Source: Dictyostelium discoideum
Lineage: Eukaryota
Assembly (NCBI GenBank): GCA_000004695.1
Contig: CM000155.2
Location: forward strand, 1,472,001-1,536,000
Length of the DNA: 64,000 bases
Reading direction: 5' to 3'
Shown: positions 6,095 through 52,127 of the stretch, in pieces
Numbering within the stretch: position 1 is the first letter of the stretch
Layout of the letters: the number at the start of each line of letters is the position of its first letter
Notes under the pieces: generated by a model
What the model saw: only the letters and a program-made list of their open reading frames with translations
The model's database searches: none
What the model was told of the DNA's origin: nothing
Translations under genes and position numbers: made by a program

Positions 6095-6150
<56 letters not shown>

Positions 6151-7084: not shown

Positions 7085-7116
<32 letters not shown>

Positions 7117-29672: not shown

Positions 29673-30578
29673 GGTGGAGCATAAAAAAGGGATTGCAGAG
29701 GTCGGTAATGATATTTTGATTTGTCGTCTTAACCACTAGACTATTAAGGAAGTATCCATAAATTAGAATCGAACTAATGCTTACAAAGTGAATTTAATCG
29801 AAGTAACCCACCTACTCATGCCCTCAAGAAAACAATTCAATTATAATACCTTTTTTTCAACAACCAACTTTCTGATAATTTTAACAAAATAACATTTTTT
29901 TTTTTTTATTTTTTTTTATTGATATTTTATTTTGTTAATTATTTTAGAAATTGAATTTTCCTAATATCTGTATCATTGGTATTTGATAGTTTTTTTTTTT
30001 TTTTTAAAGTTTTATTTGATTAAATATAATGGTGATTTTCTGTGGGATCGATATCACCTAAAAATGATCAAATAAAAATATGGTTCTAATTCTTTAGATT
30101 ATCATTTTTTTTTCCTCAATTTTAATTATTAAACTTTTTTTTATTTGGTTTGTTTTTGGGTGTTGTATTTAATTATTGTTAATATTTATCTATTATTTTT
30201 TTAAAATTCTAAACATATATAATAATAAAAAATAAATACATTAATTTTAAAATTAATTTCTTTTGATTGACCGTTAATCAAAAGAAACAATGATTTACAT
30301 TGTAATCAATCACATAACTTGTAAACCAAAGTTTTTTAAAACAAATAAATAATAAAAAAAAAATAAATAAAAAATAAAAAAAAATAAAAATGTAAATGAA
30401 TATAAAATAATATTTTCTTTTTTAAAAAAAGGAACACCATGGATGAATTATTTTGAAGATAATATTTTTTGGAGATTTGATGTATGAACTATTTATTATT
30501 TATTATTTATTTTTATTTTTTATGTTTATTTTTTTTTTAATGTTAAAAACAAAAAAATTAAAATTCAACAAGAACAAT

Positions 30579-32973
30579 TTATTTCTTAGAACTAATACAT
30601 GATTTACATATTATTGTTTGGCCATTACTAGCTAACTGTTTAAATTTATCTTTGTCGATTTGAAAATCTTTTTTACATTTTGGACAGTTTAGTTTTTTAT
30701 CATTGCTTTTTTGATCATTTTGTTTGTTGGATTTACATGATTTACATATTATTGTTTGACCATTTTTAGCTAAATCTTTAAATTTATCTTTGTTGATTTG
30801 GAAATCATTTTTACATGTTGGACAGTTTAGTTTTTTATCACTGCTTTTTGGATCATTTTGTTTAGCTAATTTATCAGTTACATTTGAATTTGAATCGACT
30901 TGTTTATTGGATTTACATGATTTACATATTATTGTTTGACCATTTTTTGCTAAATCTTTAAATTTATCTTTATTCATATGGAAATCTTTTTTACATGTTG
31001 GACAGTTTAGTTTTTTGTCACTGCTGTCTGGATCATTTTGTTTGTTGGATTTACATGATTTGCATATTATTGTTTGACCATTTTTTGCTAAATCTCTAAA
31101 TTTATCTTTATTGATATGGAAATCATTTTTACATGTTGGACAGTTTAGTTTTTTATCACTGCTCTTTGGATCATTTTGTTTAGCTAATTTATCAGTTACA
31201 TTTGAATTTGAATTCTTTGAAGTATGACATGATTTACATTTTATTAGTTGACCAAGTTTCTTTAGTTCTTCATATTTGTCTTTGTTAAAATCAAAATTAT
31301 TTTTACAAGATGGACACTTTAGTGTTTTTAAACTACCACCATTTAAATTGGCTTGTTGTTGGTTTGAGTCTTTAGTTGGATTTGAATCTTGTTTTTGTTG
31401 AGCTGAATCGACGTATTGTTTTTTAGAATTATCATTTTTAATTTTTGATTCATCAATGGTGATGTTTTTCTTTTTTGTTTTTAATGACTCTTCTTTATTT
31501 AATTTATCACAGATCTCTCTAATGGTTCTAATCATTTCATCGGCCGATTTTCTGGCATCGAATGAAGTTGAGTTTTTAGCTTCCATTTCCATTTGATTTA
31601 AAGTAATTTGAAGTTCATCAACTAAATTAAAACCACTACAAATTTTTTTCAATTCTTTACAAGATTTTACAATATCATCGGTCATTTTATTCAAAGTGGC
31701 ACTGGCTAATTTCTTTGCTGAATCAAGATTGAGAATTTTTCCTGAAAATTCGGAAGAGAGTTCAGAGCTTTTTAAAAACTTTTCCTTCATATCTGTGAGT
31801 TCTTGCTCAACTGTCTTATTAACTTTAACCATTGTTTTTCTTCCATGATAATGAACATTGTAAAGGCACTTTGAAGGACAAATTTTGCAATTATTGGTTC
31901 CACTCATTGCTACACAACCTATGAATGCATTATCCCCTTTTGTTGATAGCTCTTCTAAGCCACCTTTTAAATGATAAAATTTATTAATAATTATTTAAAA
32001 AATAAATTAAATTATAAAATTACTTACATTTATTATGACAAACATGGTCACAAGTACTACATAGGGTACTATGATATGGTGCATCTTTTAATTCATACTT
32101 TTCAATTGTATTTTTTGTTGTATAATTTTTAAATGATTCTTTATCATTATTTGCCTTTTCCAATTGATGTTGATACTGAGATAAAGAATCTTGAAGCTTT
32201 TGAAGATTTCCAATATCTGTTTTTGCTTTATGAAGAATTGATTTAATGTTGTGTCTATGGGCTTTCATTTCTCCAAAATCTTTGGTTGAAACTGATGACA
32301 TCTTTGTTACACATTCAAGGATTCTATCTAAAGTTTGGAAAGAAAGTTTGAATTCAAGTTTTAATGATTCAACTGAAGTTGGGTCCCATAGTTTTGGATC
32401 AGTACTGAATGCAGTATTATTCATATGAAATACATATTCTGGATTAACATTTATTTCAATTGAATTAATATCAAAGTTTCTTGTATGGCTAAGACAGTTG
32501 GTAAACACAATGAAAACATTATTTAAAAGAGAATCAGGAATTGAACCACGGAGTCTTGTAATAACATTTTGAAGGTTAATTGTCATTCTTGGAACTGTAC
32601 CATTTACTACAATTAATAGAGCGGACAAACTTGGGCAACTTTCTGCAGCATCAATAATTTTTCCAATATTGATATCATCTTGTTTAATACCACGTGTATC
32701 TGATAAACCTGGAGTATCAATAAATACAAATTCTTTGGAGTCTTTTTTAAATGAATATTCATTACAAAGATCAGTTTGACTTTTTGTTCTATCTTTTGAA
32801 TCATTTTCACTTGACTTTACGTTTTGATTTGAATTTATAAATTTGGTGCCAATTGAAACTTTAATTTTATCTGGAATTTCTCCATTTAAAAAATAATTGG
32901 TTATTGTATTAATTAATGTAGATTTTCCACATCCAGTTTCACCAATAACAAGCAATGAAAATTTGTTTGACAT
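30579..32973 (-). CDS. AIG1/GIMAP-type P-loop GTPase fused to a coiled coil and five tandem CxxC...CxxC zinc-ribbon repeats; 2 exons (32973..32020, about 31970..30579), about 780 aa
   Basis: Exon 1 has LLVIGETGCGKSTLIN (G1), FIDTPGLSD (the AIG1-type DTPGL switch II) and LLIVVNG. It ends CSTCDHVCHNKCK at a GTAAGT donor. Exon 2 continues in frame: ...GGLEELSTKGDNAFIGCVAMSGTNNCKICPSKC. It then has five units of about 48 aa, KKLNCPTCKNDF[HQ]INKDKF[KR]DLAKNGQTIICKSCKSNKQ. These units are about 144 nt each and nearly identical at the DNA level. Confidence 0.7.
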
Positions 32974-33800
32974 TTTATTTTATATGATGTTGATGAAGAA
33001 AAGAAAAAATATTGTGAATAAAAAAAAAAAAAAATTGTTTAATAAAAAGAAAAAAAAAAAAAATTCTTCACAAAATCTTTCAAATTTTTTTTTTTTTTAA
33101 AAAATTAAGTTTTGTAATTTTGTGCCCCATCTAAATCTTTAACAAACCAAAAAAAAAAAAAAAAAAAAATTTATTATTGGGTGAAATATTTTTTAATGGG
33201 TTTCTTTGGGACTCCAATGAAAAGTATAACAGTAATTAAAAAAATGCATAAATTTTTTTTTATTTTTTTTTTTCCTTTTGAGATTTTGTTTTTCACTAAC
33301 CAGATTTTAAATTTTTATCTGTAAAAAAAAAAAAAAAATGAAAAAAAAAAAATATCCAATTAATTTTTTCTTAAAAAAAAAAAAAAATTATATCCAATAA
33401 ATTTTTTCTAATAAAAAAAAAAAATAAAGATCAATTTTAAATAATAATTCAATTATAAAAAAAAAAAAAAATTTAATACTTTTTAGTATTAGTAACCTAT
33501 CAAACAGCTTTCTTAAAAATCATAATAGAATTTTGGTTGTCATTGATAGATTTTAAAATTTCTTCATATGTTGTTGAAGTGTTTTTGGATGCATTTTGTA
33601 CTGAATACTTCAAAGTTCCCCATAAAATGATTGAATTGACCAATCATATATTAAACAATATTGATCTTTATTTTAAATTCTTTTTTTAATATTTGGATGG
33701 GATTAGCCCTATTATAAATAAAAAACTAATTTAATTGATAAGTAATTTAATCATTTATAATTTTTTTTTTTTTTTTTTTATACCCTGGTTGGGTTATTTT

Positions 33801-33852
<52 letters not shown>

Positions 33853-34514
33853 TCTTAATCTGTTTTTATTATTTTTTGTTATTTTAAATCTTTTATAAGT
33901 TTTTTTTTATTTTTTTTTTATTTTTTTTTATTTTTTTTTTTTAATTTCTAAAAATTAATATGGATAATGGATTGATCAGTCTATTATTTTTTTTCTATTG
34001 CAGTTTTAATATTAACTTTATCTAAAATTGTTTGAAAAATATCAAATAATTCGTCATAAAACAATTCAAAGTTTTCTTTAATTGCAAAAAATAAATCTAC
34101 TTGATAATGAAAATTAAAATTTTTTTTGATATCATTTAATTTTCTTATTGCTTTTTCATCATATTGCGATAAAATTGTTTTTGAAATAATTAAAATAAAT
34201 GTAATATGTTGGAGCCCTTCTTTTGAATTTTTAGAATTAAAGTTTGAAATTTGTGAATTTAATTTGGAAAAACAATCATATTCATCCCACTCTGTGTTAT
34301 ATAAATCCAAAATAAAAATTACAAATTGTGAACAATATTTTGAATGAATTGAAAATTTTGATTTTTGATTTCAGACTGAACCATTTTCATTATTTTCTAT
34401 GACATTAAACACCGATTCTGGGGTTGATAATTTTTTAAAATAATCTTCAAAAAATGGTTTACCTACTTGAACATCCTCAAGACCAAATAATGAAATTTGA
34501 ATTTTTTTTAATTT

Positions 34515-35262
34515 TTATAAAATATCATTTGATATTGGTGGTTCAGGAGTAATATTTTGTAATTTAACCATTTGGCCAGTCAATAGTTTTAAACTTGAAA
34601 AATTAATTTCCATAACTTTGCAATGTGTTATAAACAAAGCAAAATTTTCAATACCAAGTAAATTTGTTGCTTTTAATGTTTCTAATTTTGGTAAAATTAA
34701 AATTAAATCTTTTTGTTGATTAAAATCATAATTCTTTACATTCGAAAAACCAATATCTAAATATTTTAAACTATTTTTAAAGTTTGAGTTTATGAAATCA
34801 ATAATATTATTATAGTTTTGAATTGTTAAAGTATCTTTTAAAGTCAATCTTTGTAAATGTGAACTTTCAACCAAAAAACAATTTAATTTTGAACAATTTG
34901 TAATATTTAATTCAACTAAATGATTTGCTTTAATTTTTATAGTTGATAATTTTGAACAATCTTGAAAACTTAAATGAGTTAAAACTGGGAATTCCATTAA
35001 ACTGAATATATTTGAAAGATCAACAAATGAAATACAATTTACTAAATTTATTTTTGATAGATTTGAAAAATTAAATGTCGACTTTAAAATTGATGAATTA
35101 AAGATACTACTATTTAAAATGTTTAAAATATAAAGTTTTGGTTTTTTTAATTTTAATGATTTAAAAAATATAGTTTCTTCTTGAGGTGTTATTATTGAGA
35201 AATCTGTATTATTAAATAATTTTTCTAAAACTCCTTCATTTATAATTTCATTGAGCTTGTTG
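34515..35262 (-). CDS. Leucine-rich-repeat protein (partial model; upstream exons not resolved; ORF 33984..34310 may be a downstream exon or remnant)
   Basis: Open frame from about 35262 to 34515. It contains LRR-like L..L.L..C/N units: LTHLSFQDCSKLSTIKIKANHLVELNITNCSKLNCFLVESSHLQRLTLKDT. No in-frame ATG occurs before M at 34997. A stop lies between 34515 and the 34310 ORF. Confidence 0.4.
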
Positions 35263-35510
35263 AAAGTTTATATATTTTTTTTTTTATATGGTATAAGGGT
35301 GGGAATTTTATTATATTTTTTCAAGTTTTATAATTTATTTTTTTAAATATTAATAAAATAGAATTAAAAACATTACTGGTACCAGTAATACTATTTTTTA
35401 AAATAAAAAAATATTAAATTAATAAATAAATTCATTAAAAAAAAAAAAAAAAAAAAAAAATAAATTAAAAAAATAAATATTGTAAATAACTTCTCAAACT
35501 AGCTTCTTTT

Positions 35511-35610
35511 GTTGTAGGGAATTTTCCATAAAATTTCACTACAGTAGCGTAGTGAATTTTATTATTTAATTTCACTACAGTAGCGTAGTGAAAAAAAAAA
35601 ATCACTGACC
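35511..35610. repeat. Left terminal inverted repeat of the Tdd-4-like element; it carries an internal 2x direct subrepeat ttcactacagtagcgtagtga
   Basis: Exact reverse-complement match to 38892..38991. Confidence 0.85.
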
Positions 35611-35712
35611 TTAAATTTTTTTTTTTTTCAAAAAACAAATAAAGTTTATTAAATTGAAATTTTATTTTTTGTTTTAATTATTATTTTATTTATTTTTATT
35701 AAAAATAATGGT

Positions 35713-35745
<33 letters not shown>

Positions 35746-36520
35746 CAATTTTTTTTTTTTAAATTTTTTTCAATTTTTATTTGTTTATTAAATTGTAATT
35801 TTATTTTTTGTTTTAATTATTATTTTATTTATTATTATTGTTAATTTTTTTTTTTTTTCAATTTTTTTTTTTTTAATTTATTTTTATTAATTTATTTTTA
35901 TTAACTCCCTGAGTTGTTCAATTGCTTGATTTACCATATCACTGTAAACACTGCACACAATTGAATTTTTTCTAGCTTTGTTACCTCTGGTGCATTTGAT
36001 GTTTTTGCATTTTCCTTTGTATACAAAAAAGTCCAAATATAATTCGTTTTCTATTACAGTTTTTACACAATGTTGGTGAAATTGTTTTGATTTTAATTCT
36101 AATGCTTCTAACATCATATTTGAATTTTTAACGATTAAAGCATCACCACTATTTACATATAGTACTTTGGCTGCTTTTTCGAGGAATTTAGTCAAATTTT
36201 CCTCTGAATCTAACTATTCTTCATTGCCATATTCAATGGCTAAATTTCTTAAGAGTTTTATCGAATCTATTAATTCTTCGATCATTCTTTTTTTTTGAAA
36301 TTTTTTTTTATTTTGTTTTTTCAATTTTTTTTTTTTATTTTGTTTTTTCAATTTTTTTTAAGTTTTATTTTTTTTTATTTTTTTTTATTTTTTTTAACAA
36401 ATGTAATTTTTTTTTATTTTTTTCAATTTTTTTTTTTTTTAATTTTTAATTTTTTTTTTTTTTTTTAATTTTTTGTGTTGATTTGTGTTTTTTTTGTTTT
36501 TTTGATTTGGCCACTTGTTT

Positions 36521-38652
36521 TTATTTTCTAATTTCCCCATACCCCCTTCTATTAATTGCAACCAAATCAAGTTCTAATTTTTGTGTCCTTGTTGACTTTG
36601 TTTTTGCAACTTTTTTTGAAGGTATCACATTAACGATTTTTCCTATTGATGGTGATTTGGAAGGTGATTTAAATGGTGATTTAAATGGTGAATTGGAAGG
36701 TGATTTAAATGGTGAATTGGAAGGTGAAATGGATGGTGATTTGGAAGGTAATTTAAATGGTGATTTGGAAGGTGATTTAAATGGTGATTTAAATGGTGAA
36801 TTGGAAGGTGAAATGGATGTTGATTTGAGAGGTGATTTGGATGTTGATTTGAGAGGTGATTTGGATGGTTTAGAATGTGATTTTAAAGGAGGTTTATTAA
36901 CAATTGGTATCTTATGAGGACGGCCTCTGAGACGTTTAACAGTTGTTACTATACCACTACCAGATTGTGGTATAGTATATGATGGTATTATTTGCACTTG
37001 AGGTATTGGTGGTACTATTTCTTTTAAATTCATATCCTTTCTCAAACAATTCATTAAATTTGGCGCTGTTGGATTATTATTTAAAAATGGGAGTATTTCT
37101 TCTTGTTCCATTTCATTATTGAGTTTGTGTTGAAATGGATTATCGTTAATGATAGGTGGAATATTTGATGGATTGTTAAGAGCATCTTCCAAAACCCTAA
37201 ATGGATCATTTTGTGTTACCAATTGATGCAAGTTGAAATTGGATAAATCCTTACCAAGATTTTTAATAAACTGAACCAGAAATTCAATAACTTTCCCATC
37301 ATTATTTAAATAAAGACCAGAAGTAAAAGAATCAATATCTTTTTGTATGTTTGGCGATGTTCTAAAAATATCAACTGTTGATTGTTTATAAAGAACCAAC
37401 TTGTTACCTCCTACAAAACCAGAGTATAAACCTTTTTTTTGAAGGCTATTGATTCCATCTTCCAAAAATTCAAGTTTATAAAGTTGTTTAGTGTCTTCCT
37501 GTATTACCTTATGAATTTTACACAAAATCAATATTTTCTATTAGAATTAAATATAAAATTTGTTAATTATTACTGTTTCATATATTATTAATCTTTATGT
37601 TTTAATTACTTACATTATTTTTTTTAATTTCTAGAAAGAGTACAGTATCACCAACTTTCAATCCCTTTGGTGGTTTTGAATTCCATTGATTTTGGTAACT
37701 TGTGAGATTTTCAAGAATAATAGCTGTTATTTCTTCTTTTGAAACATCTGAAACACCAATTGATTGAGAGTCTTGTTCTGATTGCACATTAATAAACAAA
37801 GGTACAATACCAACAGCTTGAGATGGTGTCATTTTAATTGTTCTTGTTTTTGTATTATTGTAATCATACAAAGCTTGTTTTAATAGTTCAGAAAGAGACC
37901 TAGAAGTACCATCAAGAAAACTAAAATTTATTTATAAATGATTAATTAATAAACATATCGATAATTTATATTGTTCAAAATATCATACTCTTGTTGTTTT
38001 AATTTTGAGATCCTCTCCTTGATAGTTCGATTCAATCTTTCTACCATACCTTGAGTTGTTGGTGTACGAGGAGCTCCATGTGCTGACTTGGAGCCTGGAA
38101 AAAGTTTTAGGAATTCTTTTTGGACTTTGTTTTTAAATTCACGTCCATTATCGCAGTGCCATACTTTCACAGAGTTTTAATATAAAAGTTACAAAACATC
38201 ATATAAAAAATGATTGATACCAAACCTTTTATTCTATTTCGTTGGCAAATGTCACACGTATCTACTGCATCAGATACAAAAGAATACAATCCCATATTAT
38301 AATATTTAGTCTTGTAGTTCCCATAGGTTGCATCTCTTCCTATATGACCTTTATGCATTTCTTCCCAGAGTGATACCATTCTATAATCATTAATTACTTC
38401 TAAACACACTTCTTTTGATATATTTCTATCTCCGCCACAATTCATGACTTTTTTTTCAATTCTAAATAATTTTTCTTTTCTGTTTCTGTTTTTTATTGGT
38501 CAGAATTTAAAAAATGATTGTGTTATGGTAAGGAAAAATATTTACTCATCATGTAAAAATTTATAATTTTTATGTTTAGTATTTTCAAAATTATTATCTT
38601 CAATAAATTTTAAATAATTTATAATTTCATTTATTTTATCTTGTTTCATTTT
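36521..38652 (-). CDS. Transposase/integrase of the Tdd-4-like element, multi-exon. It has an HHCC zinc finger, a DDE (rve) core, and a C-terminal AT-hook plus (SPxK)n tail
   Basis: Exon 38652..38548, MKQDKINEIINYLKFIEDNNFENTKHKNYKFLHDE, ends at a GTAAAT donor. An exon with HKGHIGRDATY...CDICQRNR (H-H-C-C) follows. A GT..AG intron lies at about 38219..38167. Next comes WHCDNGREFKNK...GAPRTPTTQGMVERLNRTIK, the integrase core with the conserved E. Then ORF 37602..37871. Then ORF 36521..37531 with RLRGRPHK (AT-hook) and KSPLKSTSKSPLKSTSISPSNSPFKSPFK repeats. Confidence 0.6.
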
Positions 38653-38891
38653 GGGAAAATGAAAATAAAAAAAAAAAAAAAAAAAAAAAAAGTTTTGTTG
38701 GGGAAAAAAAAAAAAAATTTTGGCGCAAAAAAAAAAAAAAAAAATAAAATAAAAAAAAAAAAAAATTAAATTAAAAAAAAAAAATTAAAAAACTTTAATA
38801 GAACTTATAATCAAATAAAAGATAATAATTTAATAAACTTTATTTGTTTTTTGAAAAAAAAAAAAATTTAGGGTCAGTGATTTTTTTTTTT

Positions 38892-38991
38892 CACTACGCT
38901 ACTGTAGTGAAATTAAATAATAAAATTCACTACGCTACTGTAGTGAAATTTTATTGAAAATTCCCTACAACATCTTTCATCAATTTCAATT
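38892..38991. repeat. Right terminal inverted repeat of the Tdd-4-like element
   Basis: Reverse complement of 35511..35610. Confidence 0.85.
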
Positions 38992-39025
38992 GTAATCATT
39001 TTTTTTAATTTTTTTATTTATTTTT

Positions 39026-39060
<35 letters not shown>

Positions 39061-39909
39061 TTAATTTGTTTTTTTTTTTTTATTTTTTTTTTTTTTTTTT
39101 TTTATTTTTTTTTTTTATTAATAATCTACATTCATTTGATTGCAATTCATTTGAAGTTTCAATAACTTTCCAAACATGTGTCATTAATGTTCTATCTTAA
39201 ATAATCTAAAGTCCATAAAAATGATTAAATAAAATGAAAATTATTAAATAATAAAAAAATAAAAAATAAAAAGATTTATGGAAATGGAATAAATATAGTA
39301 ATGAAAATAAATTTTTTTTTATTTTTTTTTGAAAGAGAAAATATATACCATTATATGAAAAAAAAAATAAATTTTATTTCAACCACTTTTTTTTTTGGGT
39401 ATGAAAATTTATATAGTTATTGGTGGTGTGGTGGTGTGAAGTGGGGTATGGTGGGGTAAAAAATATAATATTATTTCAAACTCAGCTGAATATAATTTAC
39501 ATAAAGTGGCATGAAAATTTATTTAATTTTATAGTGGTTTTTAATAAATTGTGGTGGGCTATTATAAATTTAAATATGAAAATTAATAATAAATTTTGTA
39601 TTTTAAAATTAATAATAATAAACACAGTAAATTGTATTTTTTCAACAACAAAAAATATATTTTTTTGGTTTTTTTAATTATACAATTAAATTGAAAATTA
39701 TATAAATTTTCATGTGAAAAAATATTAATTTTATAGAGTGTGGTTTTTTTATTCCAACCCAATATATTTATAAAGCCGCTGTGGAGAGAGTATACAATAA
39801 CGGTACCAAATTAAATAATAACTCCAAATTCATTATATATGACTGTTCAATTAAATGCGAACTCTCAAAATAAATTAATAAATTAAAAATCAAATTAAAA
39901 AAGAAATTA

Positions 39910-39942
<33 letters not shown>

Positions 39943-40020
39943 TTATTATTATTATTAGATTCATTTATTTTTAGAATAATATAAAATGATAATAAATCAA
40001 TTTTAGTTTTTAAGGATTAA

Positions 40021-40062
<42 letters not shown>

Positions 40063-40243
40063 GAAAAAGAAAGAAAGAAAATAGGATTTATGTTTTTTTT
40101 AATATATTTTTTATATTTTATTATTGTTATTATAATAGAAAAAAAAATTTAATTAAACTTTATATTTAAAATTTAAAAAAAAAAAATTAATTTTCATTGT
40201 TGTTGTTTGAAATTATATTTTAGAAAAATAATTTTTCTACAAC

Positions 40244-41479
40244 CTAATTGTGAAGAATATTTATATCTTTAATTGATTTTGCAAATTTAATATTTTGAGC
40301 TTTAATTTTATAATATTCTTCAAATGCTTGTTTTGGACCATATTCACCACTATATAAAACTTTTAAAAACTTATCAGTTGTTTGTGCACCTCCAACTTCT
40401 AATTGATGAAACAATGAAAGATCAAAAAATATTGTTTTAGAGTAATTTAAATATTTTTCATATATTGACATTGATTCATCCAATAGAAATGGTTTATATT
40501 TGATTGTTACATATGGTTCTAAATATTGAAAAACGTCTAAATGAGTTATTTTATTATCACCATTGCTTATAAATAAACTTTTTAATCTTATTAATTTTGA
40601 ATAAACATTCTCAATTTGACCAGGTGAAAATGGAACTCCAACAACGGTATCATTATTATCAAATTTCTTTTCTTTTATTGATTTCATTAAACTAATGGAT
40701 GAATCATGATACTTTTGTAAATGATTTAGCCAATCTACCATAAAATCATCGATATCTATTTTAACAAATTGTTCAACTATTTTATGATCAACAAATTCAA
40801 ACATATGATCTAAAAGAAAAATATCATTTTCAACTGGCAATGAAATTTCACCATTGTGAATTAAAATTGAAGGGAAAAAAGCTAAAAAACAATATTCATC
40901 TGGATCATAACAAGATATTTTATATGCATCATTTAATGATATATCTTGTTCCCATCCATTTGATTCAATAATAATTGTACCAGTTGGTTTAAAAATATCT
41001 TGATCAATTTCTTTACCACCCTTTATGCATTCTAAAACATTATTTACTAATTCTTCAATATAAACTTTACAATCATCTATTAATTGTAAAAATGATTCTT
41101 TTACTTTTTCACTATAAATACTATCAATTAAATTTATAATACTCTCATTTTGTGATTTAATTTTTGAAAATAATTTACTTTCAACTGATGGTGATTTAAT
41201 AAAATCAGATTTAAATGATAAATCAAGTAATCTTTCTGGTGGGTTCAATGATTGAAATAATTCTCTACATTGCATATAATGACTTTTTTCACCATTTTCA
41301 ATTTCTATTAAATAATCTTGAAATAAAAATTTAGTTTTTGAACACAATGATTGTTTACATAATTTATTTAATTTCTCTATTAAAGTTTTTGCATTTCTTA
41401 AATTATATTTATTTTCAACTGTAATAGATTTTTCTTTAGGTTCATGAATTACAATTCTTTCTTCATAATCTGTAAACAT
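40244..41479 (-). CDS. Hypothetical protein, 411 aa, single exon, no recognised domain
   Basis: Long ORF with ordinary, not low-complexity, composition. It lies between the Tdd-4-like element and the Harbinger-like island. AT-rich flanks with poly(A/T). Confidence 0.45.
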   Translation of the reverse strand: MFTDYEERIVIHEPKEKSITVENKYNLRNAKTLIEKLNKLCKQSLCSKTKFLFQDYLIEIENGEKSHYMQCRELFQSLNPPERLLDLSFKSDFIKSPSVESKLFSKIKSQNESIINLIDSIYSEKVKESFLQLIDDCKVYIEELVNNVLECIKGGKEIDQDIFKPTGTIIIESNGWEQDISLNDAYKISCYDPDEYCFLAFFPSILIHNGEISLPVENDIFLLDHMFEFVDHKIVEQFVKIDIDDFMVDWLNHLQKYHDSSISLMKSIKEKKFDNNDTVVGVPFSPGQIENVYSKLIRLKSLFISNGDNKITHLDVFQYLEPYVTIKYKPFLLDESMSIYEKYLNYSKTIFFDLSLFHQLEVGGAQTTDKFLKVLYSGEYGPKQAFEEYYKIKAQNIKFAKSIKDINILHN

Positions 41480-42012
41480 TTTAAAAATAACTTTATAAAA
41501 AAAAATAAAAAAATAAAAATAAAAAATAAATCAGACAATTAATTACATGGAATTAAAATTATTTATAATAAATGGGTTTGAATATTTACCTTTTATTTAC
41601 AATGTAATAATGTGAATGGATTTCTTTTGACTTATTTATCACCATATAAATTTTAAAATCTTGTGGAATTAGTTGATTTAAAATTTAAAAAGATTAAGAA
41701 AAAAAAAAAATTTTTGTTTTTTGTATTTTATTTTTTTTTTTTTTTTAATTTTTTTTTTGATTTTCAAAAAAATATCAGATTTTTTTTTTTTTTTAGTGAA
41801 AAAACCTTAATAAAAAAAAAACATAAAATTAATTATAAAAAAAAAAAAAAAAATGAAAAAAAAGGCCCAACTTTTTTTTGATAAAAAAAAAAATAAAAAA
41901 ATAAAAAAATAAAAAAAATAAGTTTAAAAAAATGATCAAATCGTATTTTTTATTTTAGTGTTAATTTTTTTTTTTTTTTTAGTGTTAATTTTTTTTTTTG
42001 GTGAAAATAAAA

Positions 42013-43207
42013 TTATTCCAATTCCTGATCGGATTGTCTTGATCTTTTCCTGGGGAGATTATCGTCAATGGTTTCAACTTCTTGGACTAATTGTTTGACA
42101 GAATCACATAGTGATTTTAAGATATCAATCACTTGTTGGTTATGATCACCTTGCTTTTGGAAAATTTCCAAATGTTTTTGTTTAAGATCATTGCTCTTTT
42201 TCGTAACCTTGAGGAGCTCATTCTTTACCAAGAATGTATTTTGCAGTGTTTCATGGACCTTTGTCTTAACACTGGTATGGTGTTGTTTATCTACCAAGTT
42301 GCTGGTTCTAATTTCGTTTTGGATTTGGTTTTATGTTAGTTGGCTACCAGAAGTTGCAAGCACTCTAGTAAACTCGATTTGGCTCTGGAGCTTGATAACC
42401 AATTTTGAAATTGGATAGAACACTCTTTTTAGTTGTGGAATGAGAGCTTTGACTTGATTGCTTACAATTTGATGTTTTGCTACCATAATTTTCTTCTTGA
42501 ATTCTATCTTCATCTTCGGTTTCCTCATCAGTCTCTTCATCAACAGTTTGCGATGGAGTTAATTTTGGCGTGTTACCATTTTCAGATGGAGTTGGGTTTG
42601 GTATAGATGCAGTGGTTTTGAGTCCATGTTGATTAATATACATAACTATATTATTGTACTTGTTCATCAATACTTGACTTTTGCCACTGAATTTGTTTCT
42701 GGTGAATAGATTGACTAGATGGGATCTGAACTTTTTAGGGCAGTCATTGTTTAACTTGTGGACATAAACAACCATTTTGTGAAATTCTTCATAACATTTG
42801 TAATGTTGATCTTTTTCTGAGTCATCTGTAACCCTTGTAAGATAATTTCTGAGTTCTGGACTGAATAGGAAATTTAATGATGTGATATTATTTGCAAAAT
42901 GCTCCACAATGAAATCGTTGGCCTTCTTGTAAGTTACACGTTTCCCACCATTTTTATTTTCAGCTTTTTGGCGAATACAATATGAATAGAAAAGAACGTC
43001 ATCATTGTCTTTGATTAGATCATAGTTTTCTTTAAGAAATGAGCACTCTAGAAATGGTTCAAGTAAACCATCCACTGTGCTTGGGGTTGCGTCAACAAAT
43101 CCAACCATTCCTTTCTGAGAATTAATATATCTGGTGTTAGTTGCAAATGAAAGTGTGACAGTATCAGTAGTGTTGATGTATATTGGGTCCGAATCATCAA
43201 CTGACAA
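42013..43207 (-). CDS. Hypothetical gene in a GC-richer island, possibly transposon-associated. ORFs 42365..43207 and 42013..42297 may belong together; they are separated by a frameshift or an intron
   Basis: Locally lower A+T than the flanks. The 280-aa ORF starts at a TTG in the track. The upstream frame (43048..43284) is offset by one. No domain was recognised by eye. Confidence 0.3.
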
Positions 43208-44007
43208 TGATTCATAATTCTCTGCTTTTTATTGTAGTTTAATGAATTTTGCGATTTTGTAAAATGTAAGTTTGCCAACTTCATATCTTATATTTGGAAT
43301 TTGGTAATGCAAATAATTATCATTCATTTTTTTATTTATTTTTTTTTTTTAAATACATTTTTTTTTAGTCGTTTGAGGTTTGACAAAATATTGATGAACC
43401 ATATTTAATTTTTAAATAAAATATCATTAACAACCAAATATTTAAATATTTCCATTATTATAAAATCTTATTGGGCTAACAACTAAAAAATCTTTATGTG
43501 GTAACATCTAAAAAAATCTTTAATAATTAAATATTCTATTAACTAAAATCATTTCAGTATAACAGCTAAAAAATCTAGTTATTGTGAAAAATTAAAAAAT
43601 AAAAAAATAAAAAAATAAAAAAATAATAAAAAAAAAATAAATTTTTTTTTTTTTTTTTATATTATTTTTTTTTATAGATAAAAAACCTAAAATGGAAAAT
43701 CATTTAATAAATAAAAAAAAAAAAATCATAACATTATTTAAAATAATAAAAACTATACTCAGTTGTGTAGGAATTTTTTGTACATTTAAAAATAATTTTA
43801 TAGGTAATTCAATAGATTTTTTATATGACGATTCTATTAATAATTTAAATCGAGATTTATATATTTTTGATCCTACAGCACTAAACAAATACTTATATAG
43901 GAATAAAACCAATTGGAATTATAGACAAAAAAAAGAAACAAAACAATGTAAAAAAAAAAAACTCTGTTGTCAAAATTGATGACCGTTGTCAGTTAGATAC
44001 TCAACAG

Positions 44008-44856
44008 ATGTCAATGGTCAAAAGAATTGTTAGACCAATTTTTATGAAAAAATATACAAAGTCAAGGTTATATTGCGAATCTATTATCGATTTCCTATTA
44101 TATTATTTAATTGTAAGTAAAAAAAAAAAAAGAAATTATAATTTAAATTTTTTTTTTCCATTTCTATTTCTATTTTTTAAAATTATTATTATTTTTATTA
44201 TTACTATTTAAAAAAAAAAGTACTAATTAAAAATAATATAATTTCAGAATGGAGGAAAGTTAATTGTCCACTCAAACACTTTTAAATGTTCAATTTCAAC
44301 ACTCTCTAGATATAAAAGAGATGGAATTCCTATAATGTGTGAAGCTTTAAGATTTGTAATTCCAACATGGAAACCTGAACCGAATACCATTTATGCAATT
44401 GATTGCACTACTTCTCCAATATGTAGACCCCACCCGGGACAAAGAGAGTTTTATAGGGGAGACCAAGGTTATCACTTTTTAGGTGTTCAATTAATAGTTG
44501 ACATTACCAAATTTTTAATTGTTGATGTAATAATTGGCAAGGGTAGAAATAATGATTCAGGTTTGGCAAATATTTCAGGTACAACAGATTTGGTGTTAAA
44601 AAATAAATTGGTCATTCTTGCAGATAGAGGATACTCTAAAAATAAATTCGTTACTCCCAATAGTCTTGATTTAATAGAAGGTGAACCAACAGAAGAACTT
44701 GTAACCGAATTTAGAGATTTTGTTTCCAAAAATAGATCATGTGTCGAAAATGCAAACCAAAGATTCAAGTCTCTGGATTTATTCAACAAACCTATAAAAT
44801 CTCGTCCAATTTCTCATGCCTATACAACTTTGTTGGGGGTATATTGCAAATATTAA
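44008..44856 (+). CDS. PIF/Harbinger-type DDE nuclease (DDE_Tnp_4) transposase fragment, 2 exons (44008..44112, 44248..44856), about 238 aa
   Basis: Exon 1 ends ...LLYYLI|GTAAGT. The intron ends TTTCAG. Exon 2 has TIYAIDCTTSPICRP (first D region), LVILADRGYS (second D) and NRSCVENANQRFKSLDLF (the E/R..VE..F..LK..F motif). The product is shorter than full Harbinger transposases, which have an N-terminal HTH. It is therefore likely truncated or missing exons. Confidence 0.5.
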
Positions 44857-45591
44857 TTTAATATATAATTCTCAAAAACATGTAATATCTAGTTTCGAAG
44901 AAAAAGTGAGACTTATTCATGGGAATTATCTCTAAAAAAAAAAAATAAAATAAAATAAAATAAACACTGCTCCAGTAAAAAACAAATATCTTTTTTATTT
45001 TTCTATTTTTATTTTTATAACTAAAAAAAAAGAAATAACCGACAATTTAGCACAAAATTTTTTTTTTTTTTTTTTTTTTCGCTAAAATAAATTGTGAAAA
45101 AACCTTATTTTAGATATTAATTAATTATTAATAATTAATAATAATATTAATTATTAATTATTAATTATTTCCAAAGCAAAGAAAATACTTTCATTATTTT
45201 AAGTTCTCTCTTTTATTATAACTTTTTTTTTTTTTTTTTACCTGTGATCAGACCTTCAAGGAATGTCCTTGTGTCTTTTCGGCGGTGTTTGTTTTTTTTT
45301 TTTTTTTTTTTTTTTTTTACCTGTGATCAGACCTTCAAGGAATGTCCTTGTGTCTTTTCGGCGGTGTTTGTTAAACGGTTTTATTTTTATTATTCAATTG
45401 TATTAAATTTTTTAAACTATATTATATCTTTCATTATAACTGAACATATATTAAAATTTATATTTTTTTTTTTTTTTTTTTGATATAAATAAACTATTGT
45501 AGTATACAATTAGTATGTTATTTTTATTTATTTATTTTAGGTTTTTTAGTTTTTGTGAATTTAAAATGGTATGTTATTTTAGATTAGGTAA

Positions 45592-46745
45592 TTAATAATT
45601 AATTGGTGGTGTAATTGTTGGAATTGGTTCATTTGTGTTTATGCTCCATTCTTTTTTAAATTTTTTGATGGTTTCAGACCATTGGGTTTCTTTTTGAGTT
45701 TTTGTGAAGTTGTTTTTAATTGAGTATTGGTTAAAGTTTGATAACGTTCTTGAATATTCCAATCTTATTAGCTTGTGCCATTTTGATTTTAATATATCAT
45801 AATCTAGTGTTGTGTTGTTTATTTGGTTGTTCCAATTATCAATTGATTGAGTTATATTGATGTCAAATAATGATTTGCATAACCATATCCATATTTGGTG
45901 AATAACTAATGAGATTATGTTCCAATATGCATGTGTTCTGACTAGATCAAGATTTGTGTTTATATAATTCCAGTTGAACCTGTATTTTTTATATTGTGCG
46001 TTTTCTGCAAAATGAAAATTAATATTGATAGTTGGATCTGGTTTAAATGCTTTGTTGTTTGTTTGTGGTTTATAAATGAGTGTGTATAATTTTGTTGTTT
46101 GGTTTTTTGTTAGTGACCAGTTTTTGTTTCCATTGCAATTTTTATATATAAAATATTTTAATTTGTCGTGGTTTATGAAGTTGATTGTGTGCTGACAATT
46201 GAAAAACAAATGACCATAGGGATCATTATTCATTTCATTGTTGCAAATGGGGCAAACTTTGTTGTGTAGATGATTAATCGGAAGACATCTAGCATGGAAT
46301 CTTTGCATTGTATCACGGCCTTTTGGATCTTTTAATTTTTGAATTTTGACAAATAGTTGGTCGTATGTGTATTTCCATAATAGTTGTATTGATTGTTGGT
46401 GCGAAGTAAGAAGTAGATCTGAATATTTCTTGCCAATATAGTCTTTTGATTTACATTGGTGATTGTTGAGTATTGTCGAGTAGATTTCTTTGAGTGTTGG
46501 TGGTAGTGGAATATTATTTGTGTTTAATGTTTGAGAGGTTTGATTTTTTATTAATATTGGTTGTAGGATTTGAACTTTATCTTTTAGATGTCCAATTTGA
46601 GTTGCATAGTTTTCCCATTCTTTTTTGATTTTTATAAGGTATGGAGAAGAGATTGATTTGTTGATGATTTGATCCATCCAACTTATCATGTATATTGAAT
46701 TATTTGCAGATTTATGCATTTGTAAAAATCTGTTGTATATCCAAA

Positions 46746-46747
<2 letters not shown>
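45592..46747 (-). mobile_element. 5'-truncated, diverged TRE3-like non-LTR retrotransposon fragment (3' part of ORF2); its 3' UTR/tail may extend to about 45230
   Basis: The ORF of 375 aa parallels the C-terminal 350 aa of the adjacent full-length elements: KLKDPKGRDTMQRFHARCLPINHLHNKVCPICNNEMNNDPYGHLFFNC versus KIKDPKTRDTMFRFHARCLPINYLHNKQCPLCKEDMSKDPYGHLFFSC, and HAYWNIISLVIHQIWIWLC versus FAYRNLMALILHNIWIWIC. Amino-acid identity is only about 40-50%. It abuts the poly(A) tail of the next element. Confidence 0.55.
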
Positions 46748-46821
<74 letters not shown>

Positions 46822-46918
46822 TGGATTAACAAGATTGATATATGTCCATCTGTGTTAATACGAGTTTTATTTAATATTTATTTAAAGGCTTATCATTTAA
46901 GCTGAAGGGTTATTTTAA

Positions 46919-49825
46919 TCATATGAATTGATCAAAAGATATAATATTTGGGAGAGATGATTCTGGAATACAATAGTAATTAGCTGTAGTTTTTCTTAGC
47001 TTGATCGTTGAAGTGAGAAGGATCTTAGGATCTTTGAAGTTATTATGGTCTTTTGCTGATAAGTTTTTCAGATCTTTTGCTTTTTTGATGTATTCTAGAG
47101 TGGCCAATTTGTGCCATTTCTTTAGAAGGGAGCTGTATGATAGTGATTCATCTGTTAAAGGATCTTCACTGTATATTTGATTGCAAATCCAAATCCAAAT
47201 GTTGTGGAGGATAAGGGCCATTAGGTTTCTATATGCGAATGATCTGGTTAGATCATAGTCTATTGCTTTATAGTTCCATTCAAAGTATTCTTTGTGGAAT
47301 CTGTGGTTGGCGTAATCTGCATTCACTTCTTGATCTTTTTTGGCTGTCGGTGATAATTTTGGAGTTATTCTACTAATGAAATTGTTATTTTGCCTAATTC
47401 TTGTATGGTGCCAGTTTTTACCTTTGCCTGTGGTAATATAGATGAAATTTTTGAGTTTATTTATTTTTATGAATTGTTTTGTTTTCTTGCATGAGAAGAA
47501 CAGGTGACCGTATGGGTCTTTGCTCATATCTTCTTTGCAGAGTGGGCATTGTTTGTTGTGAAGGTAGTTTATTGGAAGGCATCTGGCATGGAATCTAAAC
47601 ATTGTATCTCTTGTTTTAGGGTCTTTTATCTTCAGTATGTTGTTGAAGAGTTGATTATAGCTGTAGCCTCTTAAGTTTAGAGATGATTGGAATTCCGTTT
47701 TAGGGATGGTTGGATTTTGGTCTTGAATTGTGGTATACCATTCTGCCAGTGAAAGTGGTTGTCCATTTTCGTTTTTTATGGATGTGAGATTATTGTTGAA
47801 GATTGCTTTTTTTATTCTTATTTTGTTCCATTCGTCTAAGTTTTCTTTTAGGTATCTGGATGTGAATTTGTTTTTTTGGATCTGATATTCCCAGCTTTTG
47901 TGATGAGATGAGTTTGTTTGTTTGGTTTCTAGTGCTAGGATGAACTGGTTTATGATCCAAAGTTTCTGCGCCAGTTGTCTCAATTCTATATTCCAAATGT
48001 TCCAGCCCCCTACTTTTAGTGGGTATCTTGCTCTTTTGGTTCTCATTAAATTAATAACTTGAAATCCACTAGCATTTTTGTTGTTTGGTGCCGATAAAAA
48101 CCATTCGACTAGTTTATTGATTTGGTTTAATTCCTCTTCCTTAAAGTTCTCTACATATGAATAGTAGGTTAATTTAGAGAGTGCGAATGCTTTGAGGATG
48201 TTGGTTTTGGTTTTGATTGTTGAGTCAGTGGTTTTCCATAGTACTAAGGATGATCTTATTGTGTTTAATATTTCTGGCATTTTTCTTGTTATCCCTTTGC
48301 CTGTGAAGAAGTATCCCAAGTATCTTTCTGGATTTGTAGATATTGGAATTCTTTGGTTGGTATTGTCTGGGTTGCCTATAAGAATTGATGAAGATTTGTC
48401 GATGTTTAGTTTTGAGGAAGTGGCTTTGCAAAATGAATTGAAGTGTTGTAGTACTAATTCAAGTTGTTGAGAGTCTGGGACCATTGAAGCCGAGTCGTCT
48501 GCAAAGCTTTGGAATTTCTCTCTGTGGTTGCTGTTGTTTAGAGGAAGGCCAGTAATTCGGTCATCTTGTAAAATTTTTCTAGCTAAAGCCTCTATTACAA
48601 GGACGAACAGGGTGGGTGATAGTGGATCTCCTTGTTTAACTCCTCTTTTGATCTCAAAGGGTATAGTAGTTCTACCATTAATTTCAATTCTTGCTTCAGA
48701 TTTGGTGAGTAGATTCATTATCAGGTTGATTATATTGGTTGGAATGTTGATGTGTTGTAGTGATCTAAGTATTGAACCGTGTGAGATCGAGTCAAAAGCT
48801 TTTTCGAAATCATATAGTGTAATTATTCCGTTAATTCTTTTATCATTACAATAGTTGATTAATTCGTTCATTGATATGATATTATCTAGAATGAATCTGC
48901 CTGGTACGAAACCTTTTTGATTGTGGTTGATCACTTTCGTTAGTATTGGGATTATTCTATTGTTTATTAGCTTTGAGTGGATTTTATATATACAATTAGC
49001 CAGTGTAATTGGTCTTCTGTTTTTGATTAGTTCGGGGTCTCCCTTTTTAGGTATCGTGATAATGAGGCCTTCTTTGTAATTTTTGCTAATTAGATGAGGA
49101 TTTCTTAGAGTGTCGTTGAATGCTGAGGCCAGTATTGGAGCTAGTTTTTCTTTGTGTGTTATGTAGAATAAGTTTGGAATTCCATCTGGACCTGGAGATT
49201 TGTGTGGGTTCAGTTGTTTTATTACTTCTAGGATCTCTTGTGAGGTGAATTCATTTTCAAGGTTGTCCCATGTTGAGTCCCTGGTCACTGTCCAATTTTC
49301 CAACATTTCGTAATGAGATGGTGGGTCATCTTCTTTGTAGTCATAAAGATTTGAGTAATATTTTACGTATTCTTCTTCGATCAATTCCTGTTTGTTAATT
49401 GTTCTACCTTGTGCATCTTTTACTGCGTTGATGGTGAAATCATTGTGTCTTTTCTTGATTCTCGCGGAGATGTACTTGAGTGAGGTTTCTTCGCAATAGT
49501 TGTTCAATTCTTGTTTAAGTTGTTCTTCTCTTTTTTTAGATTCATTTATTGCTGAAAGGGTTGCGAAGGCTTGGTCTTTAAATTCTGTCTCTAGTAGGGA
49601 GATTAGATTTTTGATGTTTGCCTTATTGTTGTAGTCGTTTTGTTTTTGAAATTCGGTGTATAGTTGTTTTATTTTGTTCAGTAAGCTGTTGAGTTGAGAG
49701 AAGGAAATAGAGTTATGGTTGGCTGACAGCTCCCTTGAATAATCGTTAAGTAGGAAGTCTATTTTCTTAAGCATTATGCTTGAGAGGATTGAGGATTTTT
49801 TTAATCTCCATCTGCGCTTGTTCAT
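46919..49825 (-). CDS. TRE3-like ORF2, reverse-transcriptase portion (968 aa; separated from the EN portion by a frameshift or stop in this copy)
   Basis: RT box QSFADDSASM (the YXDD-equivalent FADD) and the upstream conserved PKKGDPELIKNRRPITLANCIYKI... motifs. A C-terminal Cys/His region, CPLCKEDMSKDPYGHLFFSC, is present. Confidence 0.75.
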   Translation of the reverse strand: MNKRRWRLKKSSILSSIMLKKIDFLLNDYSRELSANHNSISFSQLNSLLNKIKQLYTEFQKQNDYNNKANIKNLISLLETEFKDQAFATLSAINESKKREEQLKQELNNYCEETSLKYISARIKKRHNDFTINAVKDAQGRTINKQELIEEEYVKYYSNLYDYKEDDPPSHYEMLENWTVTRDSTWDNLENEFTSQEILEVIKQLNPHKSPGPDGIPNLFYITHKEKLAPILASAFNDTLRNPHLISKNYKEGLIITIPKKGDPELIKNRRPITLANCIYKIHSKLINNRIIPILTKVINHNQKGFVPGRFILDNIISMNELINYCNDKRINGIITLYDFEKAFDSISHGSILRSLQHINIPTNIINLIMNLLTKSEARIEINGRTTIPFEIKRGVKQGDPLSPTLFVLVIEALARKILQDDRITGLPLNNSNHREKFQSFADDSASMVPDSQQLELVLQHFNSFCKATSSKLNIDKSSSILIGNPDNTNQRIPISTNPERYLGYFFTGKGITRKMPEILNTIRSSLVLWKTTDSTIKTKTNILKAFALSKLTYYSYVENFKEEELNQINKLVEWFLSAPNNKNASGFQVINLMRTKRARYPLKVGGWNIWNIELRQLAQKLWIINQFILALETKQTNSSHHKSWEYQIQKNKFTSRYLKENLDEWNKIRIKKAIFNNNLTSIKNENGQPLSLAEWYTTIQDQNPTIPKTEFQSSLNLRGYSYNQLFNNILKIKDPKTRDTMFRFHARCLPINYLHNKQCPLCKEDMSKDPYGHLFFSCKKTKQFIKINKLKNFIYITTGKGKNWHHTRIRQNNNFISRITPKLSPTAKKDQEVNADYANHRFHKEYFEWNYKAIDYDLTRSFAYRNLMALILHNIWIWICNQIYSEDPLTDESLSYSSLLKKWHKLATLEYIKKAKDLKNLSAKDHNNFKDPKILLTSTIKLRKTTANYYCIPESSLPNIISFDQFI

Positions 49826-49957
49826 CTGTATGTTGGGTAGAGTGAAAGTGGTTGATAGGAAGTTGTGATCTGATAGAGGTATGTCGTTAATTTTTGGGGG
49901 GATTAGGTTCCTTAGGTATAATTGGCTGTAGTTGATTAAGCTATTGTTAAGGTATAT

Positions 49958-50623
49958 TCAGTCTAGTCTCCTTTCCAAGATTCTTGTGAGGTTATTGTTT
50001 GTGTTGTGTATCGTTCTTGAGAAGGTGGGTCTTTTATTTAGTTGGTCCATATCCATTAGGTTATTTGAAATTCTGATGGCTTCGATTACTGTGGCCATCT
50101 CATCTGGGGATTGTGTTGTCAAGTTGCCTTGGTCATCATTTGATGTGTGATTGTCATTGAAGTCTAAACAGTTGAAGTCTCCTGCTATGATGTCGATGTT
50201 TTTATTAGGGTTAGACGTTAGGTTGTGGTATTGGTTGTTGAAGTGTTTGTTTAGTGTTGAAGCTAGTGTTTTTCTTTTATCAGGTTGGGCCGGGGCGTAT
50301 ATGGCCAAGATTCTCGTTGTGGTATCTTTTATTAGAATGTCTGATATTATTAGTCTACCTTCTATTATGAATATTGGTGAGAGTTTTATGTTTTGGTTGT
50401 TGTGGTTTAGTATTCCTATTCCGTTGCCTCTGTTGGTTGCGCTAATGATGGAGCCAGGGAATAGCTGGTGTGCTTGTGTTGCGTCGGCGTTGAGTTCATT
50501 GACTATGGTTAGTGCCAATGAGTTTGGGGGGGATTGGGATTTGATAAAGTCTGTTTTGTTTTTGAAGGAGGTGTCAGTGCCCCAACCTCTGACATTCCAT
50601 TGGTTGATTTTGATTACTACCAT
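49958..50623 (-). CDS. TRE3-like ORF2, apurinic-endonuclease-like N-terminal portion (221 aa, copy 1)
   Basis: The N-terminal WNVRGW and ...IIAGDFNC... motifs are typical of L1-type APE endonucleases. The same frame continues into the RT in copy 2. Confidence 0.65.
   Translation of the reverse strand: MVVIKINQWNVRGWGTDTSFKNKTDFIKSQSPPNSLALTIVNELNADATQAHQLFPGSIISATNRGNGIGILNHNNQNIKLSPIFIIEGRLIISDILIKDTTTRILAIYAPAQPDKRKTLASTLNKHFNNQYHNLTSNPNKNIDIIAGDFNCLDFNDNHTSNDDQGNLTTQSPDEMATVIEAIRISNNLMDMDQLNKRPTFSRTIHNTNNNLTRILERRLD

Positions 50624-52082: not shown

Positions 52083-52127
<45 letters not shown>

Follow-up and report, generated by a model that had tools for sequence, protein, structure and literature searches.

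An internally deleted copy of the transposon Tdd-4 on chromosome 6 of Dictyostelium discoideum AX4

A transposon with terminal inverted repeats (TIRs) and an integrase-like transposase gene lies in an intergenic, AT-rich stretch of Dictyostelium discoideum AX4 chromosome 6, which raises the question of whether this copy can still make the enzyme needed to move itself. The DNA analysed (GenBank assembly GCA_000004695.1, contig CM000155.2, positions 1,472,001 to 1,536,000 of the forward strand) is 64,000 bp long with a G+C content of 24.8%, and is referred to here as the window. A sequence-only reading of the window had described a complete-looking, Tdd-4-like cut-and-paste element, structurally intact in both its ends and its open reading frame (ORF). 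Comparison with other copies led us to a different answer. The element occupies 35510..38972 on the minus strand (3,463 bp, as delimited by its TIR pair and by an empty-site allele), and we put the probability at roughly 0.93 that it is a non-autonomous copy of D. discoideum Tdd-4, internally deleted by 394 bp, for which the transposase of full-length copies acts in trans.

Family identity and the 394-bp deletion

The best protein match to the product encoded by the element was DDB_G0292352 of D. discoideum AX4, which is 100% identical. For comparison with published elements we used the zinc-finger/DDE segments of TDD4 (XP_629668) and TDD5 (AF298206) from Additional file 1 of Bao, Kapitonov and Jurka 2010 (PMC2836005). 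The TDD4 fragment is matched by the window product at 100% identity over fragment residues 1–48 and at 98.1% over residues 150–256, residues 49–149 being absent from the product; identity to TDD5 in the same fragment is 56–62%. The match of 98–100% to TDD4, as opposed to 56–62% to TDD5, identifies the element as Tdd-4 itself, within the Ginger2/Tdd superfamily. The comparison with Tdd-4 and Tdd-5 that the sequence-only reading suggested thus returned strong similarity to TDD4, and its cut-and-paste family assignment was right, although "Tdd-4-like" undersells an element that is Tdd-4 and is annotated as DDB_G0292352.

TDD-4 has been described as 3,839 bp long and present in more than 10 copies, with TGTNR termini and a 5-bp duplication, and is placed in the Ginger2/Tdd group and classed as a cut-and-paste element (PMC2836005). 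Its ORFs are transcribed but repressed by Rb, and loss of rblA derepresses them 25-fold (PMC3386910). No mention of DDB_G0292352 was found in the paper supplements and full texts searched. Tdd-4 with its integrase-like transposase, its SPXX tail and a deleted derivative was reportedly described by Wells in 1999, when a 3.8-kb version and a 3.4-kb deleted version are both said to have been trapped on a target plasmid. The element at this locus belongs to a known family, is a known kind of derivative and has already been annotated. It has the transposase identity, long TG...CA TIRs, 5-bp target-site duplication (TSD), H2C2 domain and tandem SPXX repeats of Tdd-4, and lacks two attributes of an autonomous copy, namely a complete DDE core and a length of ~3.8 kb with exons 1–7 and six introns.

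The protein alignment has a gap between CQRNRIK and VWHCDNG, and because there is no room between CDICQRNRIK and VWHCDNGREF for the first third of the integrase core, a deletion was suspected. Comparison copies were fetched as DNA from assembly GCA_054883475.1 and comprised three full-length copies, L002 (3,821 bp, TSD CATAT), L003 (3,815 bp) and L004 (3,831 bp, TSD ATGAC), and two short copies, L006 (3,426 bp, TSD CAAAT) and L007 (3,435 bp, TSD GCTAA). With the long copies the window element shares 99.2% identity, and with the short ones 99.6%. In the DNA alignment one 394-bp gap with an identical junction is shared by the window element, L006 and L007 relative to L002, L003 and L004. The junction, ...ATTAAAACT|CTGTGAAAG..., lies at window 38171–38173 with a 2-bp CT microhomology, and the missing DNA covers the 3′ part of intron 2, exon 3 (GITKDFAPIVDTEEYSRLVYDLTS...CIDSFTKFATGR), intron 3 and the first 57 nt of exon 4. 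Two other accounts of the length difference were rejected: the 394 bp is not an insertion in the long copies, as its sequence is conserved in TDD5 and in Gypsy integrases and can be aligned with the integrase core, and it is not an assembly artefact, as the same junction is found at other loci in an independent long-read assembly.

The deletion costs the protein 103 residues, 122–224 of the full-length model P0017, including D142, D174 and D191, while D229 (HCDNG) and E266 (GMVER) are kept. Pfam places the rve domain at residues 183–244 of the full-length protein, mostly within the missing region, and longer relatives of 693–715 aa carry H2C2 plus rve; in the 612-aa window product no Pfam rve match was found, and there is a sub-threshold match to rve_3. 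The alignment of Bao et al. sets TDD4 "LVYD" (D142) opposite the catalytic "VVVD" of Gypsy 412 (PMC2836005, Additional file 1), and phmmer against PFV integrase places PFV D128 two residues from D174, with HSDQG and GKVER aligned to HCDNG and GMVER. Since D142 and D174 are both inside the deletion, the first catalytic Asp is gone whichever of them is right. Judged from these alignments, the deletion takes out the first Asp of the predicted DDE triad together with the first strands of the RNase-H-like core, and the copy is predicted to be incapable of encoding an active transposase. A copy without a complete catalytic core must be mobilised in trans, and several identical full-length Tdd-4 ORFs exist as possible transposase sources.

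It could still be argued that the Tdd-4-like element is complete and autonomous and that its HHCC-DDE transposase ORF is intact, given that its TIRs match the family consensus, its TSD is perfect, and GT..AG junctions allow one continuous ORF to be put together. We regard this as very improbable and as refuted by the alignments, since the copy is 394 bp shorter than full-length copies, has lost the first catalytic Asp and most of the rve region with the 103 missing residues, gives no rve match, and owes one of its "introns" to the scar of the deletion. The claim of structural intactness therefore holds for the TIRs, which match those of the other five copies, but fails for the ORF, from which residues 122–224 are missing. 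In the same way, the HHCC part of the "HHCC plus DDE" transposase is borne out by Pfam, but the triad is incomplete, with only the second Asp and the Glu left.

The scar itself (38164..38225, minus strand, from alignment to full-length copies) fuses the native intron-2 donor GTTTGG (38225) to former exon-4 coding sequence. Splicing to a cryptic AG at 38165–38164 would give an in-frame 62-nt "intron" with the junction 38226|38163; when the scar is not spliced, translation stops after ...IKTL, giving 140 aa. The predicted products of the element's own transcript are then a 140-aa HHCC-only peptide or an in-frame protein of ~612–620 aa without a complete active site. An intron that had been proposed at about 38219/38167, one of two whose junctions were put forward for confirmation by RNA-seq, turns out to be this hybrid of the native intron-2 donor and the cryptic AG in former exon 4, made by the 394-bp deletion. 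Gene predictors splice over the scar as well, and the resulting "intron" leads to the misleading annotation "integrase catalytic domain-containing protein".

At the DNA level the 394-bp junction was seen in three copies, each at its own locus, and at the protein level in no fewer than four gene products of AX4. The peptide spanning it, RNRIKVWHCDNG, is encoded by AX4 genes DDB_G0292352, DDB_G0292954, DDB_G0276645 and DDB_G0282083 (chromosomes 2, 3 and 6) and by two genes of GCA_054883475.1. Diagnostic changes common to the deleted copies include two additional units (24 nt) in the SPXX array; their TSDs differ (CAAAT in L006, GCTAA in L007, TCTTT in the window). An identical deletion at different loci with different TSDs means that the deleted element has transposed, and the 394-bp deletion marks a non-autonomous subfamily. 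In L006 and L007, loss of 17 nt from exon 1 (window 38623–38639) shifts the reading frame downstream of the start codon. This segment is present in the window copy and in every full-length copy. Among the three copies of the deleted subfamily that were compared, the window copy is therefore the one with the least damage.

Spread of the deleted form invites the suggestion that it does something. The subfamily could have been maintained because the scar creates the in-frame splice 38226|38163, whose product, with HHCC and AT-hook/SPXX regions, would act as a trans-dominant inhibitor or copy-number regulator; we think this unlikely. The same applies to the more general proposal that the deleted copy makes, through the cryptic splice, a catalytically dead DNA-binding protein that would regulate or inhibit Tdd-4 in the manner of KP, which we consider doubtful. 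In the window copy the scar leaves the frame preserved and the ORF is otherwise open, two independent annotation pipelines predict the scar junction, dictyBase calls the related Tdd-5 gene a "putative transposase/transposition inhibitor", and the deleted subfamily is multi-copy. However, a preserved frame is expected by chance in one case out of three, amplification needs only intact ends, and the exon-1 frameshift in L006 and L007 gives no sign of selection to keep the ORF. Ds of Ac and KP of the P element likewise combine intact ends with a damaged transposase gene in a subfamily that has one deletion junction, but they belong to other superfamilies, and a KP-like repressor role for the window copy is only speculative. 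If true, it would be a natural KP-like repressor in an integrase-type transposon.

Ends, target site and age of the insertion

The non-autonomous copy would need ends that a transposase can recognise, and these are well preserved. A long inverted repeat has its arms at 35510–35695 and 38787–38972 (186 nt, 90% identity), and within it a well-matched TIR core of 146 nt has 144/146 matches between the arms. The left TIR (35510..35655, plus strand) is identical in the other five copies, and the TIR at the 5′ end of the gene (38827..38972, minus strand) was delimited by arm-versus-arm and six-copy comparison. The only mismatches, at positions 18 and 102, were both seen in 6/6 copies compared and thus reflect a left/right asymmetry that is fixed in the family, as opposed to decay. 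The element termini are TGTTG...CAACA, TG...CA ends that fit TGTNR. A 23-bp subrepeat, TTTCACTACAGTAGCGTAGTGAA, occurs exactly and twice per TIR, at 35534..35556 and 35570..35592 in the left arm (plus strand) and at 38890..38912 and 38926..38948 in the right (minus strand), giving four matches in the window compared with 0 expected in shuffles. Each copy forms an 8-6-8 palindrome, TTCACTAC-AGTAGC-GTAGTGAA, and is a putative transposase-binding site. Flank comparison identified TCTTT at 35505..35509 and 38973..38977 as the TSD, which is single in the empty allele.

These data revise the earlier description of the ends in part. Its span of 35511–38991 started 1 bp too far in and ended 19 bp too far out, and its "100-bp exact TIRs" are real inverted termini that are ~146 bp long and carry two mismatches, while the internal direct subrepeat in each terminus and the 5-bp TSD TCTTT were correctly recognised, the latter agreeing with the empty-site check suggested at the time.

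The ends also bear on whether the locus holds a long terminal repeat (LTR) retrotransposon fragment or a domesticated, integrase-derived host gene. Integrase_H2C2 and rve_3-like similarity would suit such an origin, as would the matches to retroviral integrase structures (RSV, PFV and HIV, at E~1e-5). The ends, however, are inverted repeats and not direct LTRs, Pfam found no reverse transcriptase (RT) or RNase H domain in the element's ORFs (integrase-type domains only), and the element is multi-copy with locus-specific 5-bp TSDs, is polymorphic in its presence and matches published TDD4, which makes this origin next to negligible.

To date the insertion of the deleted Tdd-4 copy we turned to the corresponding locus in GCA_054883475.1 (L011), where the product of the flanking ORF 40244–41479 (minus strand), intact in the window, is identical. 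Two alignments of L011, to window 45293..38973 and to 35509..30000, overlap by 5 bp, and its empty site reads ...aaactagct[TCTTT]catcaattt..., with a single TCTTT, no element and no footprint. Over ~12.5 kb of flank the window and L011 differ by 4 substitutions only, all inside 33619–33793 (175 bp). The strain of GCA_054883475.1 is probably AX2-214, and AX2 and AX4 both descend from NC4. An empty site in a near-isogenic assembly, together with this common descent, indicates that the insertion is very recent, and it possibly took place within the laboratory lineage. The sequence-only reading had also called the copy recently mobile, which agrees with its 99.6% identity to sister copies and its absence from the near-isogenic assembly.

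Two details of this alignment stand out. The clustering of the substitutions at 33619–33793 may reflect local variation, a patch of gene conversion or a sequencing error in either assembly. At window 45293–45302 (L011 6189–6259) the alignment breaks and ~70 bp of L011 is matched twice, which indicates a tandem-repeat copy-number difference between the assemblies.

Precise excision in the other lineage could also have produced this strain difference, in place of a fresh insertion on the AX4 side. When DDE transposases excise by cut-and-paste, a duplication or footprint is normally left behind, and the element would be restored if the break were repaired from the sister chromatid; to our knowledge there is no evidence that integrase-type transposases excise efficiently. 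The empty site is free of any footprint and has exactly one TCTTT, which speaks against excision, while the near-isogeny of the two assemblies and the classification of Tdd-4 as a cut-and-paste element (PMC2836005) speak for it. On balance we give excision only a small chance.

Under the preferred reading, of a deleted Tdd-4 copy mobilised in trans, full-length Tdd-4 copies would supply the HHCC-DDE transposase, which would recognise the paired 23-bp palindromic subrepeats in each TIR, cleave at the TG...CA ends and integrate the element with a 5-bp stagger into AT-rich DNA, where the AT-hook plus SPXX tail may provide minor-groove binding to AT-rich sequence. The consensus ends, the 5-bp TSD, the partial loss of the catalytic core, the spread of the deleted form and its polymorphic presence are all directly supported. 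Several points weigh against this reading. Three steps are ones that we infer, namely mobilisation in trans, recognition of the subrepeats and attachment of the tail to DNA; equating the 394-bp deletion with the "3.4 kb deleted version" attributed to Wells depends on a match in size, and the AX2-214 label of GCA_054883475.1 is a probable one drawn by inference. The catalytic Asp, moreover, would be D142 in the Bao alignment or D174 by phmmer, both inside the deletion.

Gene model, C-terminal tail and 3′ ORF

The transposase gene was assembled on the minus strand from ORFs and GT..AG junctions, and all of its junctions are GT..AG. Exon 1 (38546..38649, minus strand as for all features of this gene) begins with the ATG at 38649–38647 and reads MKQDKINEI...FLHDE, an N-terminus also present in full-length models P0017, P0018 and P0021. 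Intron 1 (38486..38545, GTAAAT..CAG) is 60 nt long in the form chosen by database gene models, and a predicted in-frame alternative acceptor would extend it to 84 nt (38462–38545). Exon 2 accordingly covers 38226..38485, or 38226..38461 with the alternative acceptor, is 100% identical to the published TDD4 fragment, and contains the HHCC (H2C2) zinc-binding domain at ~38233–38364, which Pfam recognises in the window product as Integrase_H2C2 (PF17921; E=9e-08, 32.6 bits against a cutoff of 25.5 bits). Beyond the scar, the remnant of exon 4 (37989..38163) holds the second catalytic Asp (HCDNG, 38150–38152) and the Glu (GMVER, 38039–38041), as aligned to PFV and RSV integrases. It is followed by intron 4 of the full-length gene (37921..37988, GTATGA..TTTAG, 68 nt), exon 5 (37614..37920, from the gene model and protein alignment), intron 5 of the full-length gene (37538..37613, GTAAGT..AATAG, 76 nt) and, in the gene model, exon 6 (36521..37537, stop codon 36521–36523), which encodes the C-terminal region with the AT-hook and SPXX array. 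The earlier count of at least three GT..AG introns is upheld by this model, in which 38486–38545 (or 38462–38545), 37921–37988 and 37538–37613 are predicted to be genuine introns.

In the product of exon 6 the putative AT-hook core RGRP, in the context KRLRGRPHK (36917..36928, minus strand, read from the sequence), precedes the SPXX array. The array is encoded by a 12-nt tandem repeat at 36648..36869 (minus strand; TRF period 12 x 18.5 copies), which is 24 nt longer than in full-length copies. A motif count gave 15 SPXX units, with SPxK making up 10/15, and a tail composition of 23% Lys+Arg. Both the AT-hook and the SP-repeat tail had been noticed before, with an estimate of about 20 SPxK repeats that is too high. 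No Pfam AT-hook match was found in the window product at E<=1, the motif being too short for a profile to settle. The AT-hook/SPXX tail is not new and has already been described, reportedly by Wells in 1999 as 15 SPXX repeats proposed to be the DNA-binding domain of Tdd-4. A plus-strand ORF at 36483–36917 (GDLNGDLEG...) was rejected as a gene, as it is an antisense reading of the SPXX array.

Downstream, a 3′-terminal ORF or last exon that the sequence-only reading did not mention lies at 35887..36286 (minus strand; MIEEL...GNEE-TAG-LDSEEN...LIKIN; from the ORF list and alignment). Its in-frame TAG at 36214–36216 is common to all Tdd-4 copies compared, and the predicted mini-introns around it disagree among those copies. 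Homology searches with the 3′ ORF matched only other Tdd-4 copies, with none outside Tdd-4, and Pfam returned no match. Three sequences were compared for conservation of the 3′ ORF in Tdd-5: L008 is interrupted by a nested Tdd-4, L009 is without the right end, and L010 retains 16 aa only. In the dictyBase model exon 6 is joined from 36543 to 36286 by a GT-AG intron (36542–36287) and the protein ends at the TAG. Tdd-4 reportedly has six introns, with intron 6 of the AT-AA type and having alternative 5′ sites (Wells, 1999), which prompted us to consider an alternative in-frame AT...AA junction, 36556–36199, as a candidate that would read through into the rest of the 3′ ORF.

Related elements, neighbouring features and significance

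The window copy agrees with Tdd-4 in its retained transposase (98–100%), ~146-bp TIRs, TG...CA ends, 5-bp TSD, HHCC domain, SPXX tail and GT-AG introns. It differs in size (3,463 bp vs 3,815–3,839 bp for full-length copies), in 24 additional nucleotides (two repeat units) in the SPXX array and in about a dozen subfamily-specific substitutions. Its closest counterpart is the 3.4-kb deleted version that Wells reportedly trapped, since it too has intact ends and an internal loss of about 0.4 kb that recurs at several loci, and it would differ from that version in nothing of substance. Tdd-5 (AF298206; DDB_G0290955) has the same HHCC-DDE architecture, similar termini (TGTTCTAGGGAATTTT... in L008, TGTTGTAGGGAATTTT... 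in L009) and a 5-bp duplication (Bao 2010, PMC2836005), and is present in one or two copies (dictyBase). Beyond its 56–62% identity in the zinc-finger/DDE fragment it is only ~42% identical overall (the P0004/P0005 group), and P0004 and P0005 have a Ser/Thr/Pro-rich C-terminal tail with no long regular SPXX array.

The H2C2 finger, the DDE RNase-H-like core and the TGTNR termini recur in metazoan Ginger2 elements and in Gypsy/retroviral integrases (PMC2836005). The duplications are 4 bp long in other Ginger2 elements (PMC2836005), in contrast to 5 bp in Tdd-4, and LTR elements have LTRs and RT, whereas the window copy lacks the first catalytic Asp. The tail resembles the SPKK/SPXX and AT-hook minor-groove motifs of histone H1, sea-urchin H2B and HMGA, having RGRP flanked by basic residues and 15 SPXX units, but these are short motifs only in the window product, without Pfam support, and their binding is putative.

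Nested insertions were observed in two of the comparison sequences. L001 (GCA_054883475.1, JBTAPE010000033.1) holds a full-length Tdd-4 copy at 2722–8790 with three insertions of one 758–760-bp element (3108–3867, 5299–6056 and 7108–7867), which has inverted ends CACAGCAAAGAAAAA...TTTTTCTT(C/T)GCTGTG; three insertions of the same element in one 3.8-kb target is striking. This element was not found in the window, and ARAGORN found no tRNA gene in L001. It may be thug-S, given that a Tdd-4/thugS chimeric ORF is mentioned in PMC3386910. In L008, a Tdd-5-like element at 2200–8041 (terminus TGTTCTAGGGAATTTT at 2200) is broken at 6300 by a truncated, inverted Tdd-4 (6300–8041), so that two transposons are nested.

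Elsewhere in the window, two tandem non-LTR retrotransposon copies lie at 45592–57190 (minus strand), with RVT_1 ORFs at 46919–49825 and 52225–54801 and a weak Exo_endo_phos match, below the Pfam cutoff, at 54746–55828. The pair ends ~240 bp from a tRNA-Ala(AGC) gene (57428–57500), the usual arrangement of the tRNA-gene-targeted TRE elements of Dictyostelium. A plus-strand ORF at 44335–44856, with a possible first exon at 44008–44211, contains an ...ILADRGY... motif, and its orthologue in L011 (6626–7474) has precomputed DDE_Tnp_1/DDE_Tnp_4 matches, pointing to a putative PIF/Harbinger-type nuclease, either domesticated or a transposon remnant.

As a discovery the Tdd-4 copy itself matters little, and the useful outcome lies in the corrections, that the copy is non-autonomous and that one of its "introns" is a scar. 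A modest new detail is the absence of the insertion from an almost identical assembly of D. discoideum, which is probably that of AX2-214. Laboratory strains differ in their transposon insertions, and this absence fits ongoing mobility of Tdd-4 in laboratory lineages. If the insertion is indeed absent from a near-isogenic laboratory strain, Tdd-4 derivatives would still be reshaping the genomes of laboratory Dictyostelium.

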